A stretch of DNA of 64,000 nucleotides from an uncultured Planctomycetales bacterium. Lineage in GTDB: Bacteria > Omnitrophota > Gorgyraeia > Gygaellales > Profunditerraquicolaceae. Positions 3,689 to 64,000 of the stretch are shown piece by piece. The notes under the pieces were generated by a model. That model was not told the DNA's origin. It saw only the letters and a program-made list of their open reading frames with translations, and did no database searches. The stretch covers positions 10,800-74,799 of the forward strand of contig CAYWCX010000001.1 of NCBI GenBank assembly GCA_964456925.1, in the 5' to 3' direction. How positions within the stretch are numbered: the first letter of the stretch is position 1; the number at the start of each line of letters is the position of its first letter. Both the position numbers and the translations under genes were made by a program.

Positions 3689-6493
3689 TTATTTGCCTCC
3701 TATAGCTGTCAGACACTTTTCACAGATAAGAGGGTGCGCATTGTTAACCCCGACGGTGGTGGAATAATTCCAGCAGCGCACGCACTTGGCACCTTCGGCC
3801 TTGGCGACCTTAATCCTGATACCCTCTTGCGATACGTCATCTTTGCTCACCTCTACCTGCGAAACCTTAAAGATTTCACAGAGGTCGTCTTTAAGACTGT
3901 TTAAGAATGTATAACGTTCTGGGTTGTTTGTCAATAGATTTATTCCGGCATCAAAGGAACTCCCGATTAAACCGGTGGAGCGCTGCTCTTCCAGGGACTT
4001 CGCCACTTCGGGGATTAACTCTATGATTGGTTTTAATTCCGTATCGATATCCTCCTGCCGGTAAAGCGGGTTTGCCTTCGGCCAATCCAGGAGATGGACG
4101 CTGGTTATGTTACGGCCGTCCTTATCTTTAGGCATACACTGCCAGATTTCTTCAGCGGTAAATACCAGGACAGGAGCCATCATCCTTACTATCGCATTTA
4201 ATATTTCATAGATGCAGGTCTGGGCAGCGCGCCGCGGCAGGGAACCGGCGGCAGCGGTATATAACCTCCCCTTTACCATATCTAAATAATACATCGATAA
4301 CTCAATATTGCAAAAATCATATATCGCTTTATACACCTTGTAAAACTCGAAGGTATTGCTGCCGTCGCTGCCATAGGCACTCTCCACCGCCCCCAACACC
4401 TCCTGCAGTTTCCAGAGGATCCATTTGTCTATCTTTCTTAAGTCCTTATAACCTGCCTTATTGACTGCGGGGTCAAAATCATAAAGATTGCTCAGGATGA
4501 ACCTTGCGGTATTGCGGATTTTTCTATATGCCTCGGATAAACGGGCTAACATTTCTTTGGAGATGCGGATGTCCTCATTGTAATCGCTGGAGGCTACCCA
4601 GAGCCGCACGATATCCGCGCCGTACTCTTTAATGATTTCCTGCGGTGAGATAACATTACCGAGGGACTTGGACATCTTCCTTCCCTCGGCATCCACTACG
4701 TGGCCGTGGGTAAGGACGCTCTTAAAAGGCGGTCTGCCGTCAATACACATTGCCGGGATAAGCGAAGACTGGAACCATCCGCGGTGCTGATCCGAACCTT
4801 CGAGATAGAGGTCGGCAGGATAAGACAGTTCCTTCCTCTTCTTCAATACTGCCTGGCTGCTCACCCCGGAATCAAACCAGACATCCAGTATATCCGCGCC
4901 CTTGGTAAAACTTTTTCCCTTGCAATGCGGGCAGCTAAATCCCTTGGGCAAGAAATCTGTTACTTCGCGGGTAAACCAACAGTCTGAGCCTTCCTTAGCC
5001 GCTAATGCGGCAAAATTATCAATCACCGCCGGCTCCAGAAACTCTTCTTTACATCCGCTGCAGACCAGCGCCGGAATAGGAACGCCCCAGTAGCGCTGCC
5101 TTGATAAGCACCAGTCCGGCCTCAATTCCACCATCGCCGAGATTCTATCCCTGCCTACCGCCGGAATCCATTCAATATCGTTCTTGATGACATCAAGCAG
5201 CCGCTCGCGCAAGGTAACGCCGCTGTTTTTCTCGCGATAATCAATAGCCAAAAACCACTGGTTGGTAGCCCTGAAGATAATCGGGGTTTTGCAGCGCCAG
5301 CAGTGCGGATAGGAATGCCAGCATTTTTCGGCGAAAAGCAGGGCTTTAAGTTTCTGTAGTTTCTCGATGATAACTTCATTGGCGTCATAGACGTTCAGGT
5401 CCCTGAACTCTCCTGCCGAGGCATCGAAATTGCCTTTTGAATCCACCGGCATCACGACTTCAAGTTTATATTTTGATCCGGTAAGGTAATCTTCGGCGCC
5501 GTGGCCGGGAGCGGTATGGACCAGGCCGCTGCCCTCTTCTGAAGAAATATAATCAGCCAGCACTACCCTGCCCTGGCGCAGGCCAAAAGGGTGGTCATAG
5601 ATTAACCCCTCGAGTTCTTTTCCCTTGAACTGGCGGATAACCTCATATTTTTCTATCCCACTTTCGGCCAAAACCCCCCTCCTGACATTAGCAATCACAA
5701 GGTTGCCATGGGGTGTCTTAATAAAAGAATAGAGGAAATCCGGATGCACTGCTACCGCAACATTGGCAATCAGGGTCCAGGGAGTAGTAGTCCAGATTAC
5801 CAGGTAACTGTCTTCCGGAAAGTCCCTGTTTTGCCGCAGTTTAAACTTTACCAGGACAGACGGTGAAACATGCTCTTCGTATTCCACCTCCGCCTCGGCA
5901 AGCGCGGTCTCGCATTTATAGCACCAGTTTACCGGCTTTAAGCCGCGGTAGACGTAGCCCTTTTTCACCAACTCCGAAAAAGAGCGCACAATTGCCTCCT
6001 CGTAGTCGTGGCTCATCGTCAGGTAGGAGTTATCCCAATCCCCGAAGACGCCGAGGCGCTTGAATTCCTCCTTTTGAATCCCGACATATTTTAAGGCGTA
6101 TTGATAGGCCTTCTTACGGAACTCTACCTGTGTAATCTGGTATTTATCCATCTTTAGTTCTTTAAAAAGCTGGTGTTCCACCGGCAGGCCGTGGCAGTCC
6201 CATCCCGGCAGATACGGAGCGTCACAGCCCCGCATCGTCTTATATTTTACGATAATGTCCTTTAAGGTTTTATTCAGGGCGTGCCCGATATGGATGTTGC
6301 CGTTGGCATAAGGCGGGCCGTCATGCAGCACGTATTTCCTGCGGCCCCTGCCCTTTTGGCAAATCTTGCCGTATATGCCGGATTCCTCCCAGGACTCTAA
6401 GAACGCAACCTCGCGCCGGGGCAGGTCCGCTTTCATCGGAAATGCGGTGCGGGGAAGGTTCAGTGTATTTTTATAGTCGGCGTTACCTGACAT
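3689..6493 (-). CDS. ileS: isoleucyl-tRNA synthetase, type 1
   Basis: Contains the HIGH motif ([15 protein letters not shown]), KMSKS, and a C-terminal zinc-binding CVRCWN...CEKC. The track ORF is extended by 26 codons. The likely start is [22 protein letters not shown] at 6493, which overlaps the mtnP stop by 11 nt. Confidence 0.95.
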
Positions 6494-8926: not shown

Positions 8927-9225
8927 GGAGACGTTTTCCTCCCCAAAGCGGACAGTGTCTTGAGATAATCAGCGAAGGAAAGCTTTAGTTAAATTTTACG
9001 GTTTTTGCTGGAGCGCACATTAAGATTTTTATGGCAGGAGTGCACAAGGGATTACGAGCCGCTGGAATACGCTTGCCTTACGATAGCCTACTGATGGAAG
9101 CGGCGAGTAAACCGTAGTGCACGGCGTAAAAATCCAGTGCGCGAAGCAAAACCGCAAAATTTAGCTGGAATCTCTATTCGTTCATTATTTGAGACACTGT
9201 CCCGATTGACGAGGAAAACGTCTCT
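8927..9225. repeat. Palindromic repeat element copy C1: ~180-bp rod-forming core at 8988-9168, nested inside extra outer inverted repeats of about 48 bp (8927-8975 and 9181-9225)
   Basis: The core shares 85-90% identity with C2 (34530-34701) over GCTGGAGCGCACATTAGGATTTTTACGG...AAGGGATTACG...GTAAACCGTAGCGCACGGCGTAAAAATCCAGTGC. The 5' and 3' halves are reverse complements. Outer repeat: GGAGACGTTTTCCTC...GGACAGTGTCT on the left versus AGACACTGTCC...GAGGAAAACGTCTC on the right. Confidence 0.85.
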
Positions 9226-29202: not shown

Positions 29203-29246
29203 TTCCCTCTCCCTACATACTAAATACTAACTACTACCTACTGCAA

Positions 29247-34529: not shown

Positions 34530-34701
34530 ATAATTTATGCGTTTCGCTGGAGCGCACATTAGGATTTTTACGGTAGGAGTGCGCAAGGGATTACGCCGAA
34601 CGAAAGGTGGCGAGCCCGCGTTAGCATACTGCCCGAAAGAGAGGCGTAAACCGTAGCGCACGGCGTAAAAATCCAGTGCACGGAAGCGAAAGCATAAATT
34701 A
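34530..34701 (+). repeat. Palindromic repeat element copy C2; its end lies about 4 nt from the tRNA-Pro 3' end
   Basis: ATAATTTATGCGTTTCGCTGGAGCGCACATTAGGATTTTTACGGTAGGAGTGCGCAAGGGATTACG...GTAAACCGTAGCGCACGGCGTAAAAATCCAGTGCACGGAAGCGAAAGCATAAATTAAAA. Its 5' and 3' halves are reverse complements. Confidence 0.85.
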
Positions 34702-34704
34702 AAA

Positions 34705-34782
34705 TGGTCGGGGCGGACAGACTTGAACTGTCGACCTCTTGGTCCCGAACCAAGCGCTCTAGCCAAACTGAGCCACGCCCCG
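34705..34782 (-). tRNA. tRNA-Pro (anticodon CGG)
   Basis: Minus-strand sequence CGGGGCGTGGCTCAGTTTGGCTAGAGCGCTTGGTTCGGGACCAAGAGGTCGACAGTTCAAGTCTGTCCGCCCCGACCA folds as a cloverleaf. Acceptor arms are CGGGGCG/CGCCCCG, the D arm is GCTC/GAGC, and the anticodon stem is CTTGG/CCAAG with loop TTCGGGA. The T arm is GACAG/CTGTC with TTCAAGT, and the CCA end is encoded. Confidence 0.92.
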
Positions 34783-39485: not shown

Positions 39486-39668
39486 AACAAAAAACCCGAA
39501 GAGACAATCTTCGGGTAAATAAACACTGCGCCTTTAATCTCCTCCCCTCTGGACTTTACCATCGGCTCTGGAATTTCGCCAGATCTACCCCTGCTGTTTT
39601 CAAGCAGCGGGGGCTCGCGGGCTTAACCGCCGGTCAGGAATTCCACCTTGCCCCGAAGATTAACGTAA
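39486..39668 (-). promoter_or_regulatory. FMN riboswitch (RFN element) with intrinsic-terminator expression platform, in the ribBA leader
   Basis: Minus-strand RNA AAUCUUCGGGGCAAGGUGGAAUUCCUGACCGGCGGUUAAGCCCGCGAGC...GGCGAAAUUCCAGAGCCGAUGGUAAAGUCCAGAGGGGAGGAGAUU matches the FMN aptamer consensus (UCUUCGGGGCAGGGUGAAAUUCCCGACCGGCGGUAGUAAAGC ... GCCGACAGUGAAAGUCUGGAUGGGAGAAGGAU). Downstream lies the hairpin CCCGAAGAUUGUCUCUUCGGG followed by UUUUUUG, about 16 nt before the ribBA start. Confidence 0.9.
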
Positions 39669-51450: not shown

Positions 51451-51480
51451 CTTTAGGGAAGGTTCTCAACTCAAAACTAA

Positions 51481-51499
51481 GGTGTCCCCCGAGGGGGCA
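51481..51499. other. GC-rich hairpin (GTGTCCCCC-GA-GGGGGCAC) in the divergent helicase/rpmB intergenic region
   Basis: 8-bp stem with one G-U pair; lies upstream of both flanking genes. Confidence 0.35.
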
Positions 51500-51535
51500 C
51501 TTTATAGCGGAGTTCAGAACCGTCCCTATTTTATC

Positions 51536-51563
51536 TTGACAATAGGGTATTTTCAAGTATACT
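51536..51563 (+). promoter_or_regulatory. rpmB promoter: TTGACA, 16-nt spacer, TATACT
   Basis: TTGACAatagggtattttcaagTATACT at 51536-51563. RBS GAGGTG sits 7 nt before the ATG at 51604. Confidence 0.6.
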
Positions 51564-55985: not shown

Positions 55986-57011
55986 TCAATGCTTATTTGT
56001 CAGGTTATTGGTTTGCTCCTCATCAATCTCGCCGACAATCTCTTCAAGAAGGTCCTCGAGGGTAACCAGCCCCAGGGTTTTATTGTTGGCGTCTACCACG
56101 ATAGCAATCTGGATTTTACTGGCCTGGAATTTACGCAAAAGTTCGTTTACGCGCGTGGAAGTCGCTACGCTATACGCCGGATGCAATAAATCCTGCAGAA
56201 GGAACAGCCCTTTGTCGCGCAATACGTAAAGGAGGTCGCGGGCATAGATGATCCCGATAATATTATCCACGGATTCGGAGTACACCGGCAGCCTCGCATG
56301 GCCTTCTTCCACGAAGGTATTCAGGAGTGTCTCCGGGGTACTATTGATGTTAACGGCGACGATTTTTTCTTTCGGCACCATTGCTTCGCTCACCCTGGTA
56401 TCGCCAAACTCAAAAATGCGGTGGAGCATCTTTCTTTCCTCGTCGCTTAAAACCCCTTCTTCCTTGCCGACCTCGATCATCGTACGCAATTCCTCCTCGG
56501 TAATAAGCGGAGACCTCTTGGAGGGGCCGAGGCCGAAGATCTTTAATATTAAATTGCTGGTAAGGGTAAATATGAGGATTATCGGATGAAAAATCCTGAT
56601 AAATAATTCCATTAACGGCGCGGTAAAGAGTGCTACCTTCTCGGTATGCTTGGCGGCTAAAATCTTGGGGGTTATTTCGCACATAATCAGCACAAAAAAA
56701 CTGGAGGCGAACGTCGCTATTATTACCCCGAGGCGATAACCGAATATCTGCACCATAATACCGGTAACGATGGCAGAAATCGCGATATTCACGAAATCGT
56801 TCCCGATTAAAATAGCGGCGATAAATTTATCCAACCGGGTAAGAAGCCGCTGGATAACCTTGGCGCGCTTTACCCCCTTCGCAATCATATGCCGTAATTT
56901 TATCTTGCTTAAACCTATGACCGCGGTCTCGGAAGCGGAAAAGAAAAAGGAAAACACCGCTAAAATAAGTATAAAGAATACCATTAATGGAGAAAATGCC
57001 GTCATAAACAC
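55986..57011 (-). CDS. HlyC/CorC-family transporter (CNNM/DUF21 TM domain, CBS pair, CorC_HlyC domain)
   Basis: Four-TM N-terminus, CBS-pair region, and a C-terminal transporter-associated domain; 341 aa. Confidence 0.8.
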   Translation of the reverse strand: MFMTAFSPLMVFFILILAVFSFFFSASETAVIGLSKIKLRHMIAKGVKRAKVIQRLLTRLDKFIAAILIGNDFVNIAISAIVTGIMVQIFGYRLGVIIATFASSFFVLIMCEITPKILAAKHTEKVALFTAPLMELFIRIFHPIILIFTLTSNLILKIFGLGPSKRSPLITEEELRTMIEVGKEEGVLSDEERKMLHRIFEFGDTRVSEAMVPKEKIVAVNINSTPETLLNTFVEEGHARLPVYSESVDNIIGIIYARDLLYVLRDKGLFLLQDLLHPAYSVATSTRVNELLRKFQASKIQIAIVVDANNKTLGLVTLEDLLEEIVGEIDEEQTNNLTNKH

Positions 57012-58267
57012 AACTCCTTGATTATCCTGTTTTCTGCACGGCGAAGCGGGCCGATTAAGGCGATGTTTAAATTGGCTTCGCGGAATATCCGGCGGCCGGC
57101 CTCGCGCACATCCTCCCGCCTGACCCTGGCCACCTCCCTGACAACCTCCTCAAGAGAATAAGTCCTGTTCAGGGCAGCGGTGGATTCTCCGATCCAGAGC
57201 ATATGTTCCAGGGTATCTTCGAGGCTAAGCATAAGCTGCCCTAAATAAAATTCCTTGGCGCGCCTGAACTCGTCGGCGCCCACGAGGTTCTGTTTGACGC
57301 GCACCAATTCCTTTAATATTACCGCTACGGCATCGCCCGTCCTGCGGTTATCGATTCCGGCGTGCACCAGGAAGGTGCCGGTATCCTGAAAACGTTTTAC
57401 ATGCGTCCCGATTTCGTAGGCCAGCCCTCTTTTTTCCCGCACCTCATTAAAAAGCCGGCTGGACATATTCGCGCCTAAAATTATATGCAGGATACCCAGG
57501 GCGTGCCGCAAGGGGTGGTCGCGCTTGAAACCGTGAAACCCTATAGCCAGGTGCGTCTGCTCGGTATCCCTGGCAACTATCTTAAGCTGCGGTTCAACCT
57601 GTTCCTCTCTGGCCGCTACAAACACATTCCTGGTTTTACCGTCCAGCCCGCCAAAAATCCTCTCTGCTTTTTTTCTAAAATCGCGGTAAATGAATTTACC
57701 GCAGACGCTGATTACCATGTTTAAAGGGGTATAACAGTACTGGCGGTAGAGGAGGAGGTCTTTACGGTTTATCCTTCCCACCGACGCCGGTGTCCCGGTG
57801 ATGCTCATACCGAGCGGCTGGCCGGGCCAGAGCAGCTCATCTAGCAGTTCATAGACATAACTCTGCGGCTGGTCGCGGTACATCTTAATCTCTTCAAGGA
57901 TGACGGTGCGCTCCTTATCAATCTCTTCCTGCAAGAGCAGGGGATGCATTACCATATCGGATAATATATCCAGGGCGAGGTTGAGGTAGCGTGCCGGTAT
58001 CTTTACCAGATAACAGGTCAGCTCCTCGCTGGTAAAGCCGTTTAAGGAGCCGCCCGCGCCTTCGAGGGATTCCTTGATTTTACGGCAGGAGTATTTATTG
58101 CTGCCTTTAAAAAGGAGGTGTTCCAGGTAGTGGCTGATACCCTTGAATTTATGGGATTCATACCTGCCGCCGACATTAATCCAGATCCCCAGGGCAGCAG
58201 ACTGCATATCCTGCATCGGGTATGCTACGATACGCACCCCATTCTTCAATGTTGACTTTTGGTACAT
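57002..58267 (-). CDS. M16-family (pitrilysin-like) zinc peptidase
   Basis: Inverted zinc motif HxxEH (HYLEHLLFKG) with a downstream E; 421 aa. Confidence 0.85.
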   Translation of the reverse strand: MYQKSTLKNGVRIVAYPMQDMQSAALGIWINVGGRYESHKFKGISHYLEHLLFKGSNKYSCRKIKESLEGAGGSLNGFTSEELTCYLVKIPARYLNLALDILSDMVMHPLLLQEEIDKERTVILEEIKMYRDQPQSYVYELLDELLWPGQPLGMSITGTPASVGRINRKDLLLYRQYCYTPLNMVISVCGKFIYRDFRKKAERIFGGLDGKTRNVFVAAREEQVEPQLKIVARDTEQTHLAIGFHGFKRDHPLRHALGILHIILGANMSSRLFNEVREKRGLAYEIGTHVKRFQDTGTFLVHAGIDNRRTGDAVAVILKELVRVKQNLVGADEFRRAKEFYLGQLMLSLEDTLEHMLWIGESTAALNRTYSLEEVVREVARVRREDVREAGRRIFREANLNIALIGPLRRAENRIIKELCL

Positions 58268-58269
58268 CT

Positions 58270-59055
58270 TTAACCTTTTAGGGCTGAAATAAAACTTAGC
58301 GTTCTTTTTACGAGGTCGGGCCTGCCGATATCCTGCCTAATCTTTTTTACAATGGCGCTGCCTACGATTACGCCGTCGGCAACCCGGGAAAGCTCTTTTA
58401 CCTGCTGGTGCGTCGAAACCCCGAACCCTACGCAGACAGGCTTGGAGGTATATTTTTTTATCTCGCGGATATGCTCCGCTAACCCTACGGGGAGCCTCTT
58501 GCGCGCCCCGGTGACTCCGGTCAAGGAAACATAATAGATAAAACCGCGGGAGGTGCGCGCGATGTATTTTATGCGGCGGGCGCTGGTGGTGGGAGAAATA
58601 AAACATATTACGTCTAAGCGGTATTTACGGGCTAACCTTAGCAAGGATTTCCCCTCCTCGGGAGGAAGATCCGGAATAATCACTCCGTCCACCCCGGCGA
58701 GAGAAGCGTTTTTCATAAATCTTTCTTCTCCGAAACAGAAGATGGGGTTATAGTAAGTCATCAGGCATATCGGTATGCCGGTATAGCGGCGGATATCTTT
58801 GACGGATTTCAGAATCCGACTAAGATTTACGCTCTTTTTCAGCGCAAACTGCGATGACTCCTGTATCACCGGCCCGTCTGCCATGGGGTCGGAAAAGGGC
58901 ACGCCTAATTCGACGAGGTCAACCCCTGCGACAGCAAACCCCTTTGCCAGCTTTTCGGTAATGGCCAGACTCGGATAACCGGCAGTAATAAAAGCGATAA
59001 AAGCCTTTTGTTTTTTCTTTTTCAAATCCCTGAATTTGGCTTCAATCCTGTTCAT
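58270..59055 (-). CDS. trpA: tryptophan synthase alpha chain
   Basis: TIM-barrel TrpA ([10 protein letters not shown] ... [17 protein letters not shown]). Confidence 0.92.
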
Positions 59056-60236
59056 AGTTTTAACCTCTTGGCAACGACATAGGTATCCTTGTCCCCCCGT
59101 CCGGAAAGACAGACAATAATAATAGAGTTCTTCTTTATCCTGCGCCGCAGGCTGGTAAGATAAAACACGGCGTGCGCCGGCTCCAGGGCAGGAATGATGC
59201 CCTCGGTTTGCGATAATATCTTAAATCCTTCCAGGGCGCATTTATCGTCAACCGCAACATACTGCGCGCGGCCGATTTTTTTATAGTAGGCGTGCTCCGG
59301 CCCTACCCCGGGATAATCCAGGCCTGCGGCAATGGAGTGTGCGGTCTTAACCTGGCCGTCGCGGTCTTCCAGAAGGTCGGATTTGGAGCCGTGTAATACT
59401 CCCGGCTTGCCGGCTACCAGCGTAGCGGAATGTTTGCCCGAAGAAAGGCCCAATCCCGCTGCCTCCACGCCGATGAATTTGACGCTCGGCTCCGCAAAAA
59501 ACGGATGGAATAATCCCATGGCATTGCTGCCTCCGCCCACGCAAGCCACCAGATAATCAGGCAATCTTTTTTCCTTGCTTAAAATTTGCCTCTTTGCTTC
59601 GCGGCCGATTACCGCCTGAAAATCCCGCACCATCATCGGATAGGGATGCGGGCCGGCAACGCTGCCGATAATATAATGGGTGTTACGCACGTTAGTAACC
59701 CAGTCCCGCAGCGCCTCGGTCATCGCATCCTTTAAGGTGCGCGAGCCGCTTTTAACCGGAACCACGCGGGCACCCAGCAGTTTCATACGGAAGACATTCA
59801 ATTCCTGCCTGCGGATATCCTCTTCGCCCATATAGACTGCGCATTCCAGGCCGAAGAGCGCTGCTACCGTGGCTGTAGCAACTCCGTGCTGGCCAGCACC
59901 GGTCTCGGCGATAATACGCTTCTTGCCCATGCGCCGCGCGAGAATTATCTGGCCCAGGGTATTGTTAATCTTGTGCGCGCCGGTATGTAAAAGGTCCTCC
60001 CTTTTAAGGTAAACCTTTGAAATGCCTAAATAGCGGCTTAAGTTGCGCGCGAGGTATAAAGGGGTAGGCCGGCCCGCATACTCCTTTAAATAATAAGCGA
60101 GCTCCTGGGCGAACTTTTTGTCTCTTTTAGCCCTTGAGTATTCATGCTCCAATTCGTCCAGGGCATAAATGAGGGTTTCGGGGACGAACCTGCCGCCGAA
60201 ACTGTTAAAATGACCTTTTTTATCCGGTAACATCAC
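59052..60236 (-). CDS. trpB: tryptophan synthase beta chain
   Basis: PLP-lysine motif HTGAHKINN and GGGSNAMG. Confidence 0.95.
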
Positions 60237-60859
60237 AAGCTCCTTTTAGATTTCACTCTTCTTACGAACCTGACAATCTTATAATAATCTTTTTTACCCG
60301 GCTTAGACTCCAGGGAACCGGAGACATCCACCCAATCGGGATGCACCATTCTGATTGCCCTCAGGACATTATTATAATTCAAGCCCCCGGATAAAAATAG
60401 CGGTTTTCTTATCGCGCCTAACCCCCGCAGCAGCTTCCAGTTAAAACGCCTGCCTGTCCCTCCGGGCCGGGATTTCACATAAGTGTCAAAAAGGTAAGCG
60501 AAGGTGTGGTATTTTAAAACCTCCGCTAAATCTATCCTGTCCTTGATGCGAAAAGATTTAATAATGCGGTAGCGCTTGAATTTTTCGCAAAATGCGGGGG
60601 TTTCCCGCCCATGAAATTGCAGTATAGCAAGCCTGCAGGATTTGGCAATATCTTTTATTTTTTCGGCAGGCATATCCACAAAAACTCCGACCTTGGCTAC
60701 TCTTTTAGGCAGGAGTTTTATGATCTGCCTCGCTTTTTGGGGCGCGATATAACGCGGGCTCTTTTTATAAAAAACAAAGCCCAGCGCATCGCAGCCGGCA
60801 ATCACCGCGGCCAGGGCATCTTCAAGATTAGTGATACCGCAAACCTTGACTTTTACCAT
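60233..60859 (-). CDS. trpF: phosphoribosylanthranilate isomerase
   Basis: [17 protein letters not shown]-terminus; 208 aa. Confidence 0.9.
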
Positions 60860-61644
60860 CCCATGATTTCTTCAACCTTGCGCCGGATATCCTGGCTGCT
60901 CATGAAGGCCTCGCCTATCAGCACCGCGCTCACCCCCAGGATTTTTAAAAACAGGATATCCTGATAGCTCTTTAACCCGCTCTCCACTACCACTATCTTA
61001 TCCTTGGGGGTTAAGGTAAAAAGGCGTTGGGTAGTATTAAAATCCACCTCTAAAGTATGCAGGTTGCGGTTATTGATGCCGATAAGGTCGATATTTTTAA
61101 GTTTGAGTATCTTTTTTAATTCCTTTTCTTCGTGCACCTCGACTAAAACCGCCAGGCCAAGGCCCTTGGCAATCTCGGCCATTTCGGAAATGCTGTCCTG
61201 AGTAAGGAGCGCGGCGATTAAAAGCACGGCGTCAGCGCCGAAAAAACGCGACTCATACACCTGATAAGGCTCAAGGATGAAATCCTTCCTTAAAACAGGC
61301 AGGCTGGTGATACCCTTGGCGTCATTAAGGTAAGAGATCTTCCCCTGAAAATAATCCTCTTCGGTTAATACCGAGAGCGCCTGTGCTCCGGCCTCCTGGT
61401 AGGTGCGGGCAATATCCTGCACGTTAAAATTCTCGCGGATTACCCCTGCGGAAGGCGATGCCTTTTTAATTTCCGCGATGAGAGAAATCTGGCGCGGCTT
61501 ATGAATCGCCTCAATAAAAGGCCGCGCAGGCCCCAGCGCCTGCATCCGGGATTTCAATTCCTCCTCAGGCAACTGCTGTTTGGCGAAAACCAACCTCTCA
61601 TTCTTCTTAGCCGCTATCTCTTTAAGAAAATCCTCTTTTTTCAT
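60853..61644 (-). CDS. trpC: indole-3-glycerol phosphate synthase
   Basis: IAEIKKASPSAGVI motif; 263 aa. Confidence 0.92.
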   Translation of the reverse strand: MKKEDFLKEIAAKKNERLVFAKQQLPEEELKSRMQALGPARPFIEAIHKPRQISLIAEIKKASPSAGVIRENFNVQDIARTYQEAGAQALSVLTEEDYFQGKISYLNDAKGITSLPVLRKDFILEPYQVYESRFFGADAVLLIAALLTQDSISEMAEIAKGLGLAVLVEVHEEKELKKILKLKNIDLIGINNRNLHTLEVDFNTTQRLFTLTPKDKIVVVESGLKSYQDILFLKILGVSAVLIGEAFMSSQDIRRKVEEIMGW

Positions 61645-62651
61645 TGCTGCGAATACTCCTTTAATAATTTCAATTTTTCCAGCGCCTTTACGGAATCAAG
61701 AGACTCTTGCGCCAGTTTTATGCCTTCTTTAATGGAAGGGGCTTTATCGGCAGCATAGATGGCGCAGCCTGAGTTCAATAATACGATGTCGCGCGCCGGC
61801 CCCTTCTTGCCGTTCAGGACATCCATTACTATAGCGGCGCTATGCCTGGCATCGGCTGCCAGAAGGTCGCGGATATCCGCTCTCTTAAAACCAAATTCTT
61901 CCGGCGTAATTTCAAAATCGCGAAACTCCGCGGACTTAGCTTCCGAAACAAAGGTCTTATCCGTTGTAGTAACCTCATCCAGCCCGTCATTACCGTGCAC
62001 TACCAGGACGTGCCGCGTCCCTAAATTAGAGAGCACCCGGGCCAGCACCTTGGTCCACTCTGCGCTGTAAACGCCGATGAGCTGGTTGGTGGCGCGGGCA
62101 GGGTTAATAAGCGGCCCCAGGATATTAAACATCGTCTTGCGGGCAATCTGTTTTCTCGCCGGCATCACGTGCTTCATCGCCGGATGTAAATTAGGCGCGA
62201 ACAAAAACGCAATCCCGATCTCCTCAAGGCATTTCTTAATCCGGGCCTTGTCCATATTGATATTTACCCCGAGCGCCTCCAGGATATCGGCGCTTCCGGA
62301 TTTGCTGGAGACCGAACGGTTGCCGTGCTTGGCTACGGTGACACCCGCGCCGCTGGCTACCAGGGCAGTGACGGTAGAAATGTTGAACGTCCCCTTGCGG
62401 TCGCCCCCCGTACCGCAGGTGTCCAGGATATTCGGCTTATCCACGATAATCGGGTCAACGTATTTAAGCATTGCATTAACTGCCGCGGTAAGCTCCTCGA
62501 CTGTCTCTCCCTTATCGTTAAGCGAGGAGAGGAATGCAATGATATCGGCGGTATCCGTCACGCCGGTCAATATCTCCTCCATCACCCGCTGCATCTGCAG
62601 AGGGCTCAAGTCTTTTTTCTCTGCTAAAAGTTTTATTGCGTCGCGTATCAT
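61641..62651 (-). CDS. trpD: anthranilate phosphoribosyltransferase
   Basis: GTGGD motif (CGTGGDRKGTFNISTV) and KHGNR. The likely start is the internal MIRDAIKLL at 62651, abutting the trpG stop. Confidence 0.9.
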   Translation of the reverse strand: MIRDAIKLLAEKKDLSPLQMQRVMEEILTGVTDTADIIAFLSSLNDKGETVEELTAAVNAMLKYVDPIIVDKPNILDTCGTGGDRKGTFNISTVTALVASGAGVTVAKHGNRSVSSKSGSADILEALGVNINMDKARIKKCLEEIGIAFLFAPNLHPAMKHVMPARKQIARKTMFNILGPLINPARATNQLIGVYSAEWTKVLARVLSNLGTRHVLVVHGNDGLDEVTTTDKTFVSEAKSAEFRDFEITPEEFGFKRADIRDLLAADARHSAAIVMDVLNGKKGPARDIVLLNSGCAIYAADKAPSIKEGIKLAQESLDSVKALEKLKLLKEYSQQ

Positions 62652-63214
62652 AACTTTAAAAAATTGCTTAGTATATCCATACCGGCGTGCGTTAAGATGG
62701 ACTCCGGATGAAACTGCACTCCCCAAATCGGGTAGCGCCGGTGTTTTACCGCCATAATCTCGCGTTCGCCCTTCGTCCAGGCAATAACCTCAAGGCATTC
62801 GGGGAGGGTCTTCTCTTCTATTACCAGGGAATGATAGCGCGTGGCCAGGAACGGATTCTCGATATTACGGAAGATTGTTTTTGCGTTGTGATAAATACGC
62901 GAGGTCTTACCGTGCATCAGGCGTTTTGCCGAAATGATGCGGCCGCCGAAGACATAACCGATACACTGGTGCCCCAGGCATACGCCCAGGATCGGAATCT
63001 TCCCCTGGAATTCCTGAATCAGCGCGCAAGAAATACCCGCATCCTCAGGCCTGCCCGGTCCGGGAGAAATGACGATTTTCTGCGGCGCCAGGCTCCTGAT
63101 CTTACTCAGGGTAATTTTATCGTTACGAAAAACCTCCACCTTCGCCCCTAACACCATAAGATACTGCACCAGGTTATAGGTAAAGGAATCGTAATTATCA
63201 ATCATGAGTATCAT
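62648..63214 (-). CDS. trpG: anthranilate synthase component II / PabA-type glutamine amidotransferase
   Basis: Class I GATase catalytic triad context (GVCLGHQ ... HPE); 188 aa. Confidence 0.9.
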   Translation of the reverse strand: MILMIDNYDSFTYNLVQYLMVLGAKVEVFRNDKITLSKIRSLAPQKIVISPGPGRPEDAGISCALIQEFQGKIPILGVCLGHQCIGYVFGGRIISAKRLMHGKTSRIYHNAKTIFRNIENPFLATRYHSLVIEEKTLPECLEVIAWTKGEREIMAVKHRRYPIWGVQFHPESILTHAGMDILSNFLKL

Positions 63215-63234
63215 CTTTTCCTATCCTTTAGTTA

Positions 63235-63343
63235 GTAATTTTCGTAATTGGTAATTCGTAATTAGTAACTCGTAATTTTTTATTTTTAAAATTACTATTT
63301 ACGGATTACGATTTACAGATTACGGCTTTTGATTATCAATTAC
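63235..63343. repeat. Palindrome built from tandem heptamers: six GTAAYT repeats at 7-bp spacing, an AT-rich centre, then seven RATTAC/ATTTAC repeats at 7-bp spacing; between the murA stop and the trpG start
   Basis: GTAATT/GTAACT begin at 63235, 63244, 63251, 63258, 63265 and 63272. The centre is ttttatttttaa. AATTAC, ATTTAC, GATTAC and GATTAT begin at 63290, 63297, 63304, 63311, 63318, 63331 and 63338. Confidence 0.8.
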
Positions 63344-63356
63344 TAGTTTACCGCCT

Positions 63357-64000
63357 TTACTCCTTTTCCCGGCGCACCCGCGCTCCGAGGGCGCTCATCT
63401 TCTTTTCGATATCTTCGTAACCGCGGTCGAGGTGATAGATTCTGGAGATGGTGGTTTTACCTTTCGCTACCAGCCCCGCCAATAAAAGCGATGCCGAAGC
63501 CCGGAGGTCCGAAGCCATGACCGGCGCGCCCGAGAGGCGCTTTACCCCCTCCACAATGGCGTGCGGACCTTCGCGCTGAATCCGCGCGCCCATACGGTTA
63601 AGTTCCGCCACATGCATGAACCTGTCCGGATAAATCTTTTCGGTAATCACGCTGATGCCGGGGGTAACGCTCATCAGGCTCATAATCTGCGCCTGCATAT
63701 CGGTAGGAAAACCCGGGTAAGGCAGGGTAGTGACATTAATTGCCTTTAATCTTCTCTTCGCACGCACCCGCAGTGCACCGTCGGTCCGGGTAATGACCGC
63801 GCCGCTCTCTTCTAATTTATCGATAATCGCGCCTAAGTGCTGGAGTGAGGCGTTCTTAATCCTGATGTCGCCGCCGGTGATAAGCGACGCCGCCATAAAG
63901 GTTGCGGCTTCAATCCTGTCCGGGATAATGGTGTGTTCCGCGCCCCTTAAATGTTTTACACCTTCAATCCTGATAACCGGCGTGCCCTGGCCAATAACCC
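63357..64000 (-). CDS. murA: UDP-N-acetylglucosamine 1-carboxyvinyltransferase, C-terminal part; the gene runs off the window end
   Basis: The frame stays open upstream of the track ORF's first M: GQGTPVIRIEGVKHLRGAEHTIIPDRIEAATFMAASLITGGDIRIKN, a MurA C-terminal region. Confidence 0.85.
   Translation of the reverse strand, partial: VIGQGTPVIRIEGVKHLRGAEHTIIPDRIEAATFMAASLITGGDIRIKNASLQHLGAIIDKLEESGAVITRTDGALRVRAKRRLKAINVTTLPYPGFPTDMQAQIMSLMSVTPGISVITEKIYPDRFMHVAELNRMGARIQREGPHAIVEGVKRLSGAPVMASDLRASASLLLAGLVAKGKTTISRIYHLDRGYEDIEKKMSALGARVRREKE

Follow-up and report, generated by a model that had tools for sequence, protein, structure and literature searches.

The 64,000-nt stretch analysed here (the window; contig CAYWCX010000001.1, positions 10,800 to 74,799) belongs to a Candidatus Omnitrophota genome, the best genome matches for its TrpG being Omnitrophota metagenome-assembled genomes. 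The entire 142-nt spacer between its murA and trpG genes is an imperfect palindrome built of tandem heptanucleotides. The element is a dispersed repeat of about 85-120 bp, each heptanucleotide of its arms having a fixed GTAA/TTAC core and three variable positions, and it fits the widespread class of bacterial heptanucleotide arrays found in intergenic spacers, many of them arranged as inverted pairs. It has a second copy in the rho-rpmE spacer and no counterpart in the closest relatives, and is neither conserved nor specific to trp genes. With somewhat better than even confidence, we consider it to be a tolerated lineage-specific repeat which is read through, forms an AU-rich intercistronic hairpin and has incidental effects at the RNA level.

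Architecture of the murA-trpG element

Each arm of the palindrome contains five strictly phased heptads, GTAAnnn units standing opposite nnnTTAC units, with a 10-nt AT loop between the arms and a few out-of-phase units in addition. On the forward strand the left arm (63244-63278) reads GTAATTG GTAATTC GTAATTA GTAACTC GTAATTT and the right arm (63289-63323) reads AAATTAC TATTTAC GGATTAC GATTTAC AGATTAC. The out-of-phase units are GTAAT at 63235 (9 bp from its neighbour), AATTAC at 63338 and GTTTAC at 63346. A reading made from the DNA letters alone (the sequence-only reading) had counted six plus seven units at 7-bp spacing; the heptad palindrome it described is real, but only five plus five units are strictly in phase.

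Both genes lie on the minus strand (the trpG ATG is at 63212-63214). In the direction of transcription the murA stop codon is followed by AGGCG, GTAAAC, one half of an outer helix (TAGTAATT), a 14-nt bulge and the 5′ arm, and then by the 10-nt A/T loop, the 3′ arm, GAA, the other half of the outer helix (AATTACTA), ACTAAAGGATAGGAAAAG and the ATG. Counted from the murA stop, the outermost unit begins after 5 nt and the phased array after 33 nt. The purine-rich stretch next to the start codon (63215-63232) is, judging by its sequence, probably where the trpG ribosome-binding site lies. GTAAT and GTAAA alternate in the 5′ arm of the mRNA, giving a 14-nt super-period, and Tandem Repeats Finder reported two periods over the two arms, one of 7 nt (5.3 copies) and, at higher identity, one of 14 nt (91 and 90% matches).

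Each arm measures 37 nt, and 81% of the positions are complementary between the two. Folded as RNA, the spacer reaches -31.6 kcal/mol (z = -3.5), a value attained by none of 200 shuffles; the element folded alone forms 37 pairs, 29 of them AU and eight GC. The concentration of heptads was compared with 100 dinucleotide shuffles. The pattern GTAATNNGTAAT, allowing at most one mismatch, has 12 matches in the window against 3.7 ± 1.9 in the shuffles, none of which reached 12, and nine of the 12 fall in the murA-trpG spacer. A three-unit heptad pattern has 15 matches against 5.3 ± 2.8, again more than in any shuffle, and eight of them are in this spacer. The patterns cluster nowhere else in the 64 kb, and no further GTAAT array was found in the window.

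An assembly artefact can be ruled out, because the spacer sequence is identical in three more assemblies (two from ENA, one from JGI). Array-length polymorphism between the assemblies was uninformative, the contigs being 99.9-100% identical overall.

A second copy between rho and rpmE

The search for further arrays that the sequence-only reading had proposed was extended to about 10 kb past each end of the window. It found one extra copy of the GTAA heptad element upstream and none on the other side, that is, two copies in the roughly 85 kb of the genome examined. The second copy lies on L001, a contig of the same organism which runs past the window end, at L001:6424-6512 within the 115-nt rho-rpmE spacer (L001:6419-6533), 3.4 kb upstream of the first. 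Its six GTAAnnn units are followed by an AT loop, five nTTACnn units and AAAGGAGG, and then by the rpmE ATG.

Aligned without gaps, the two elements match at 72 of 82 positions (88%) when one of them is inverted and at 62 of 82 in the same orientation. When the order of heptads within the arms was permuted, 72 matches were reached in 0.16% of trials. The order of heptad variants is common to both: one arm alternates ATTTAC and GATTAC, and GTAACTC occupies the same place in the other. The shared heptad order and the better inverted alignment show that the two elements are copies of one another lying in opposite orientations to transcription.

The GTAA/TTAC core is present in all ten phased heptads of each copy. 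All 40 core positions are identical between the copies, and the variation falls in positions 5-7 of the heptads. At these variable positions the two arms are complementary at only eight of 15 and seven of 15 sites in the two copies. Both strands of both copies fold alike (-28.9/-31.7 and -28.3/-30.8 kcal/mol), the hairpin of the rho-rpmE copy has z = -3.1, and the sense strand is not enriched in G-U pairs. Since the strands fold equally well and the variable positions are poorly complementary, there is no sign that the sense-strand RNA has been optimised.

Absence from close relatives

The co-directional gene string rho-rpmE-prfA-prmC-murA-trpGDCF(BA) is kept in Omnitrophota relatives. The closest ones found are represented by six contigs with TrpG 80-86% identical to that of the window (L204, L205, L206/L207, L208/L209). 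In all six the gap between murA and trpG is 3-4 nt, with the same gene order as far as the contig reaches, and in the three which extend to rho-rpmE the gap there is 18-28 nt. None of the six contigs (three of 20 kb, one of 13 kb and two of 2-3 kb) contains a heptad array. In relatives at 71-77% identity murA and trpG overlap or abut (-4 or +1 nt), and other distant relatives have unrelated murA-trpG spacers of 43-147 nt. A BLAST search with the element against all fetched loci gave single-arm matches only and no homologue of the whole element. Because the closest relatives have tight, array-free junctions, both copies are recent lineage-specific insertions into junctions which were ancestrally tight. 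The sequence-only reading had held that a lack of such arrays in relatives, together with efficient termination here in all conditions, would reduce the feature to a plain terminator; the comparative half of this has come out as stated.

Other repeats are present in the same gene string elsewhere in the group. A GTCATAG/CTATGAC palindrome stands at murA|trpG in L006 (z = -7.6), an AATTATG palindrome at trpD|trpC in L007 and a direct AGCTGAW array at trpC|trpF in L009, while hairpins with a degenerate 7-nt period stand at prmC|murA and murA|trpG in L019. L004 carries a direct AGTACRG array at trpC|trpF and another within prmC. The latter (L004:2160-2197) is a four-unit AGTACGG/AGTACAG array in the coding sequence; it encodes part of a variable linker (KKSTEYGVQSTEV) with a net gain of two residues, and the near-identical array 4.2 kb away fills the trpC-trpF spacer.

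Long hairpins of 130-160 nt (minimum free energy -30 to -60 kcal/mol) also fill whole spacers at L004:460-623, L013:6384-6529 and L019:2441-2587 and 3854-4000. The one at rho|rpmE in L004 reaches -60.5 kcal/mol and the one at trpC|trpF in L013 -45.1 kcal/mol. A residual period-7 signal (0.46 and 0.39) persists in the two spacer hairpins of L019, as though these had once been heptad arrays and had since decayed.

Tests for known regulatory signals

Curated RNA families were searched with Rfam 15, at the gathering threshold for the whole window. The only matches were a flavin mononucleotide (FMN) riboswitch at 39533-39664 (minus strand, 111.5 bits) and tRNA-Pro(CGG) at 34705-34782 (minus strand). 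At a permissive threshold the best matches in 62000-64000 were models of plant microRNA-precursor hairpins with E of at least 0.18, far under their gathering scores. The absence of a T-box, noted earlier from the letters, agrees with the lack of any Rfam family match.

The hallmarks of an intrinsic terminator, a GC-rich stem with a U-tract behind it, are missing: the stem has 29 AU and eight GC pairs, no U-tract follows, the 3′ flank is GAAAAUUACUAAC and a terminator scan gave no match in the spacer. The sequence-only reading had likewise held that this is no simple terminator, and it is right that the U-tract is missing and the stem is not GC-rich.

A trp leader bound by TRAP has 9-11 (G/U)AG triplets with 2-3 nt spacing. 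The spacer RNA has no phased (G/U)AG array, as was also said earlier; it has three unphased UAG triplets and a periodicity of 7, not 5, so a TRAP leader or a HutP-like site was rejected. A leader peptide was rejected as well, because TAA occupies all three frames of the 5′ arm and no leader open reading frame is possible.

No sigma-70-like promoter site was found in 62900-63700. The best such match of the region (TTTACA-17-TATAAT, 11 of 12 positions) lies at L001:8504-8532, within the 3′ end of prmC and a short way upstream of murA; as promoter-like sites are not enriched over shuffles, it may be a chance match. No regulator gene adjoins the element, whose neighbours are rho, rpmE, murA and trpG.

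Period-7 arrays at large

The period of tandem arrays was surveyed in L004-L083 (618 kb from 80 genomes of many phyla), loci which had been picked only for a trpG homologue. Among arrays of at least three units, 31 have period 7, as against 0-3 for each of the periods 5, 6 and 8-12. Period 7 thus exceeds every other period from 5 to 12 at least tenfold. Such arrays are frequent in Verrucomicrobiota (seven of them in L061) and Omnitrophota. Of the arrays in all fetched loci whose neighbours could be classified, by crude open reading frame calls, 69 lie between co-directional, 20 between convergent and seven between divergent genes, the numbers for background spacers being 394, 96 and 97; heptad arrays are therefore depleted in divergent spacers (p = 0.007). 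The heptad sequence varies between related genomes and, in L009, L011 and L061, between arrays of one genome, and many arrays of relatives are direct repeats without a hairpin. A metagenome scan for five phased GTAA units returned at least 120 stretches, several palindromic ones among them, from a very wide range of organisms; the home sample was not among the matches listed. The scan shows that arrays of this type are common across many organisms.

The window itself contains a direct heptad array at 29203-29246, which fills the 44-nt spacer of two minus-strand genes and reaches the ribosome-binding site. On the mRNA it reads GCAGTAG GTAGTAG TTAGTAT TTAGTAT GTAGGGA and has no hairpin partner.

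The murA-trpG element shows the traits of the heptanucleotide class: exact 7-nt head-to-tail units with a conserved core and free positions, an intergenic location behind the upstream reading frame, co-directional neighbours and lack of conservation at orthologous junctions. The sequence-only reading had offered a protein-binding array, a regulator of trp expression and a repeat-expansion hotspot; the last came closest of the three, its repeat nature being right.

Comparison with described heptanucleotide repeats

In Xanthomonas, arrays of GGGAATC (GGGAnTn) number about 185 per genome, about 90% of them are intergenic and they lie on average 28 nt behind the upstream reading frame (Rehm et al. 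2015, PMC4692102). Sixteen per cent of them stand between convergent and 7-8% between divergent genes, and each genome has 70-75 convergent inverted pairs capable of forming a stem-loop (PMC4692102). They are transcribed, the long ones are not common to sister species, and no regulatory role was found for them; the same work treats the Nostoc heptamer GGGGA(T/C)T (PMC4692102). Heptamers are reported to be over-represented among bacterial simple repeats, and slippage linked to the polymerase active site has been put forward as the reason (Mrazek et al. 2007, as cited in PMC4692102).

The present element resembles these arrays in its 7-nt unit with conserved and free positions, its intergenic and mostly co-directional setting and the inverted pairing. 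The Xanthomonas and Nostoc repeats are G-rich and can form quadruplexes, whereas ours is AT-rich, with 29 AU among 37 pairs, and cannot. It also differs from the Xanthomonas arrays in its Omnitrophota host, in having two copies so far against about 185, and in that the two can be shown to be copies of each other.

TAACTGA repeats, which occur in Beggiatoaceae, Cyanobacteria and Bacteroidetes, stop shortly before the start codons of genes, ribosomal-protein genes among them (MacGregor 2015, PMC4679880). The genes downstream share no common function, a binding factor has been proposed, and in Maribeggiatoa 169 repeats are direct and one is indirect (PMC4679880). In Nostoc, heptamers upstream of recF and recO alter reporter expression, and a partner factor has been proposed (bioRxiv 10.1101/2022.06.06.494920). 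Like the TAACTGA repeats and the cyanobacterial STRR sequences, the present element consists of tandem heptamers in an intergenic spacer; unlike them (they are nearly all direct), it is arranged as a symmetric inverted pair around a defined AT loop.

Paired sites of five tandem MTYCTGA heptanucleotides in Geobacter metallireducens are drawn as fold-backs, one of them between the co-transcribed proB and proA (Aklujkar et al. 2009, PMC2700814). They are absent from the sister species, and their designation as global regulator sites is a hypothesis (PMC2700814). The pairing of five heptamers between biosynthetic genes is shared with our element; the sequence and the phylum are different.

Proposed origin and probable effects of the repeat

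REP/BIME, ERIC and Correia (NEMIS) sequences are dispersed imperfect palindromes of about 35-150 bp which occupy transcribed operon spacers in either orientation and fold in the mRNA, where they can block exonucleases or serve as RNase III sites. Terminal inverted repeats and a TA duplication mark the Correia elements; REPs occur in many dispersed copies and have a GTAG head and RAYT transposases, which are HUH enzymes. None of these families is known to have an internal 7-bp periodicity like that of the present element. A mobile element resembling a miniature inverted-repeat transposable element (MITE) or of Correia type would have terminal inverted repeats within a target-site duplication; comparison with the empty sites of L204-L208 gave no clean duplication at either copy of the present element.

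The element probably arose when 7- and 14-nt units expanded by a slippage-type process and the array was duplicated in inverted orientation, and it would then have been copied to a second nearby spacer by a transposition-like or recombinational event leaving no target-site duplication. RNA polymerase most likely reads through murA into the trp genes, because the ancestral murA-trpG junction is too tight for a promoter and the element itself contains no promoter-like site. The mRNA would then carry an imperfect 37-bp AU-rich hairpin composed of 4-8-bp helices with small internal loops. Such a hairpin may break the close translational coupling of murA and trpG that the 3-4-nt junctions of relatives suggest, and the trpG ribosome-binding site would end up in a spacer which the relatives lack. 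By analogy with REP, ERIC and Correia sequences, the hairpin may also offer an RNase III site or a barrier to 3′-exonucleases. Presumably, the element itself does not sense tryptophan.

Several observations weigh against treating the element as a tolerated repeat and nothing else. The ten differences between the copies all spare the 40 core positions (p = 0.0007); therefore the GTAA/TTAC cores are constrained, by selection for pairing or recognition or by homogenisation, to a degree which exceeds pure neutrality. The block rpmE-prfA-prmC-murA is enclosed exactly by the two copies, a possible indication of an insulator or terminator function. Neither copy has a clean target-site duplication relative to the empty sites in L204-L208; short TAAAG(G/T) repeats flank both. 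The crudeness of the reading frame calls behind the context statistics also has to be counted here.

Alternative explanations

The bracketing could be explained if the hairpin had been selected as RNA, as a terminator (factor-independent or Rho-assisted), an insulator, or a stability or RNase III signal isolating rpmE-prfA-prmC-murA from rho and trp. We judge this somewhat unlikely. Both hairpins are significant and the differences between the copies spare the paired core positions, but the sense strand folds no better than the antisense strand in either copy and the variable positions pair no better than chance. Heptad arrays generally sit just past stop codons and are rare between divergent genes; against this, many of those in relatives are direct repeats which form no hairpin. 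Canonical terminators, a hairpin plus a U-tract, are not above shuffles in this genome (31 versus 27 and 19 versus 14), so non-canonical 3′ signals are plausible, and long hairpins occupy other spacers of the gene string in relatives (L004, L013). The present hairpin, however, lacks a U-tract, no promoter-like site stands 3′ of it to restart trp transcription, and the closest relatives manage with junctions of 3-4 nt and no element.

A protein could read the array instead. Omega of pSM19035, a ribbon-helix-helix protein, binds cooperatively to heptad operators made of contiguous 7-bp units in direct and inverted order, and TTTTGAT heptads in the Vibrio cholerae ctxAB promoter are likewise read by a protein. 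A lineage-specific reader of 7 bp or 7 nt would polymerise on the GTAA/TTAC cores and control passage or initiation at the two junctions, candidates being a ribbon-helix-helix protein like omega on DNA and a cold-shock-domain or other single-strand binder on RNA. We regard this as unlikely. The layout of contiguous direct and inverted heptads, in which a 4-nt core is invariant and the spacer positions are free, agrees with it, as do the core-only conservation between the copies, the same heptad at two loci here and the recurrence of heptads within L004 and within L078. The omega and ctx heptads, however, lie in promoters adjacent to the cognate regulator or controlled by it, whereas the present element overlaps no promoter-like site and has no regulator gene nearby. 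Heptads differ between and within related genomes, so many co-evolving factors would be needed, and the closest relatives have no site at all. Heptamer-binding factors were proposed by the authors for Nostoc, Beggiatoaceae and Geobacter; the heptamer-repeat literature cited above identifies no binding protein for chromosomal arrays of this kind.

A bolder version, which we think quite unlikely, takes the heptads for a deliberate recognition code, a factor with a 7-nt or 7-bp footprint coating or melting both arms. A cold-shock-type single-strand binder, a ribbon-helix-helix filament or a HUH enzyme targeting TTAC/GTAA may be considered for this part. If this were true, the palindrome would be a switchable insulator or a mobilisable unit around rpmE-murA, the core conservation would be the footprint of the factor, and the element would provide a first handle on the bacterial preference for heptamer repeats.

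A tryptophan-responsive leader or attenuator, that is an RNA or protein switch for trpGDCFBA of the kind that the sequence-only reading had considered, is extremely improbable: its sole support is the position directly before the first trp gene, while an oppositely oriented copy, 88% identical, stands before rpmE, no relative with TrpG of 80% or higher identity carries the element, and the element has no T-box or Rfam match, no leader reading frame and no phased (G/U)AG array.

Features of the locus and other fold-backs in the window

The features of the murA-trpG junction are collected in Table 1. On L001, where it is full-length, murA matches TIGR01072 with 563 bits (cut-off 393). In the trp cluster (window 57000-63214 and L001) trpG follows murA directly and trpE is lacking; in the relatives L007, L009, L012 and L015 a trpE-like gene, labelled by eye from its sequence, precedes trpG.

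Table 1. Features of the murA-trpG junction in window coordinates; the mRNA corresponds to the minus strand
Feature	Position	Strand	Evidence
murA, 3′ part (cut by the window end)	63357..64000	-	list of open reading frames; stop TAA at 63357-63359
Spacer, 142 nt, nearly filled by the palindromic heptad element	63215..63356	-	murA stop and trpG ATG
Outer 8-bp helix, 5′ half on the mRNA, UAGUAAUU; holds an out-of-phase GTAAT	63338..63345	-	inverted repeat, 8 of 8 complementary; paired in the minimum-energy fold
5′ arm on the mRNA, GTAATCT GTAAATC GTAATCC GTAAATA GTAATTT	63289..63323	-	period 14, 90% matches
AT-only centre (loop), forward strand TTTATTTTTA	63279..63288	.	sequence, fold, alignment of the copies
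3′ arm on the mRNA, AAATTAC GAGTTAC TAATTAC GAATTAC CAATTAC	63244..63278	-	period 7, 5.3 copies; period 14, 91%
Outer helix, 3′ half, AAUUACUA; holds an out-of-phase unit 9 bp from the phased array	63233..63240	-	inverted repeats, fold
Purine-rich unpaired stretch with the putative trpG ribosome-binding site, mRNA ACUAAAGGAUAGGAAAAG, then AUG	63215..63232	-	sequence; unpaired or weakly paired in the fold
trpG, 188 aa, first gene of trpG-D-C-F-B-A	62648..63214	-	TIGR00566, 263 bits (cut-off 121)

Fold-backs of other kinds are present in the window. One of about 297 nt lies at 8928-9224, has the termini GAGACGTTTTCCTC and GAGGAAAACGTCTC and folds to -137.9 kcal/mol (z = -9.3); Rfam gave no match for it even with the threshold relaxed to E ≤ 1. 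Copies 76-79% identical to it are located at 34534-34701, by tRNA-Pro, and at L210:15774-16258, the latter being a double copy of 528 nt that lies just beyond the window, between rodA and a radical-SAM gene. The family could be a MITE or a structured RNA of no known family. At 51451-51563 a 113-nt spacer between co-directional genes is filled by a hairpin of about 75 nt (z = -4.6), which is not built of heptads and has a GC-rich tip.

Implications

The comparison removes a candidate trp attenuator and files the feature under the cross-phylum excess of intergenic 7-nt repeats, often arranged as inverted pairs. Operon spacers of Omnitrophota hold several kinds of fold-back repeats which can be mistaken for riboswitches or attenuators. 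The two young, related copies, with empty sites in sister genomes and divergence confined to positions outside a 4-nt core, constitute a clean natural experiment. Such a pair could help to separate slippage bias from selection on pairing or on a recognised motif.

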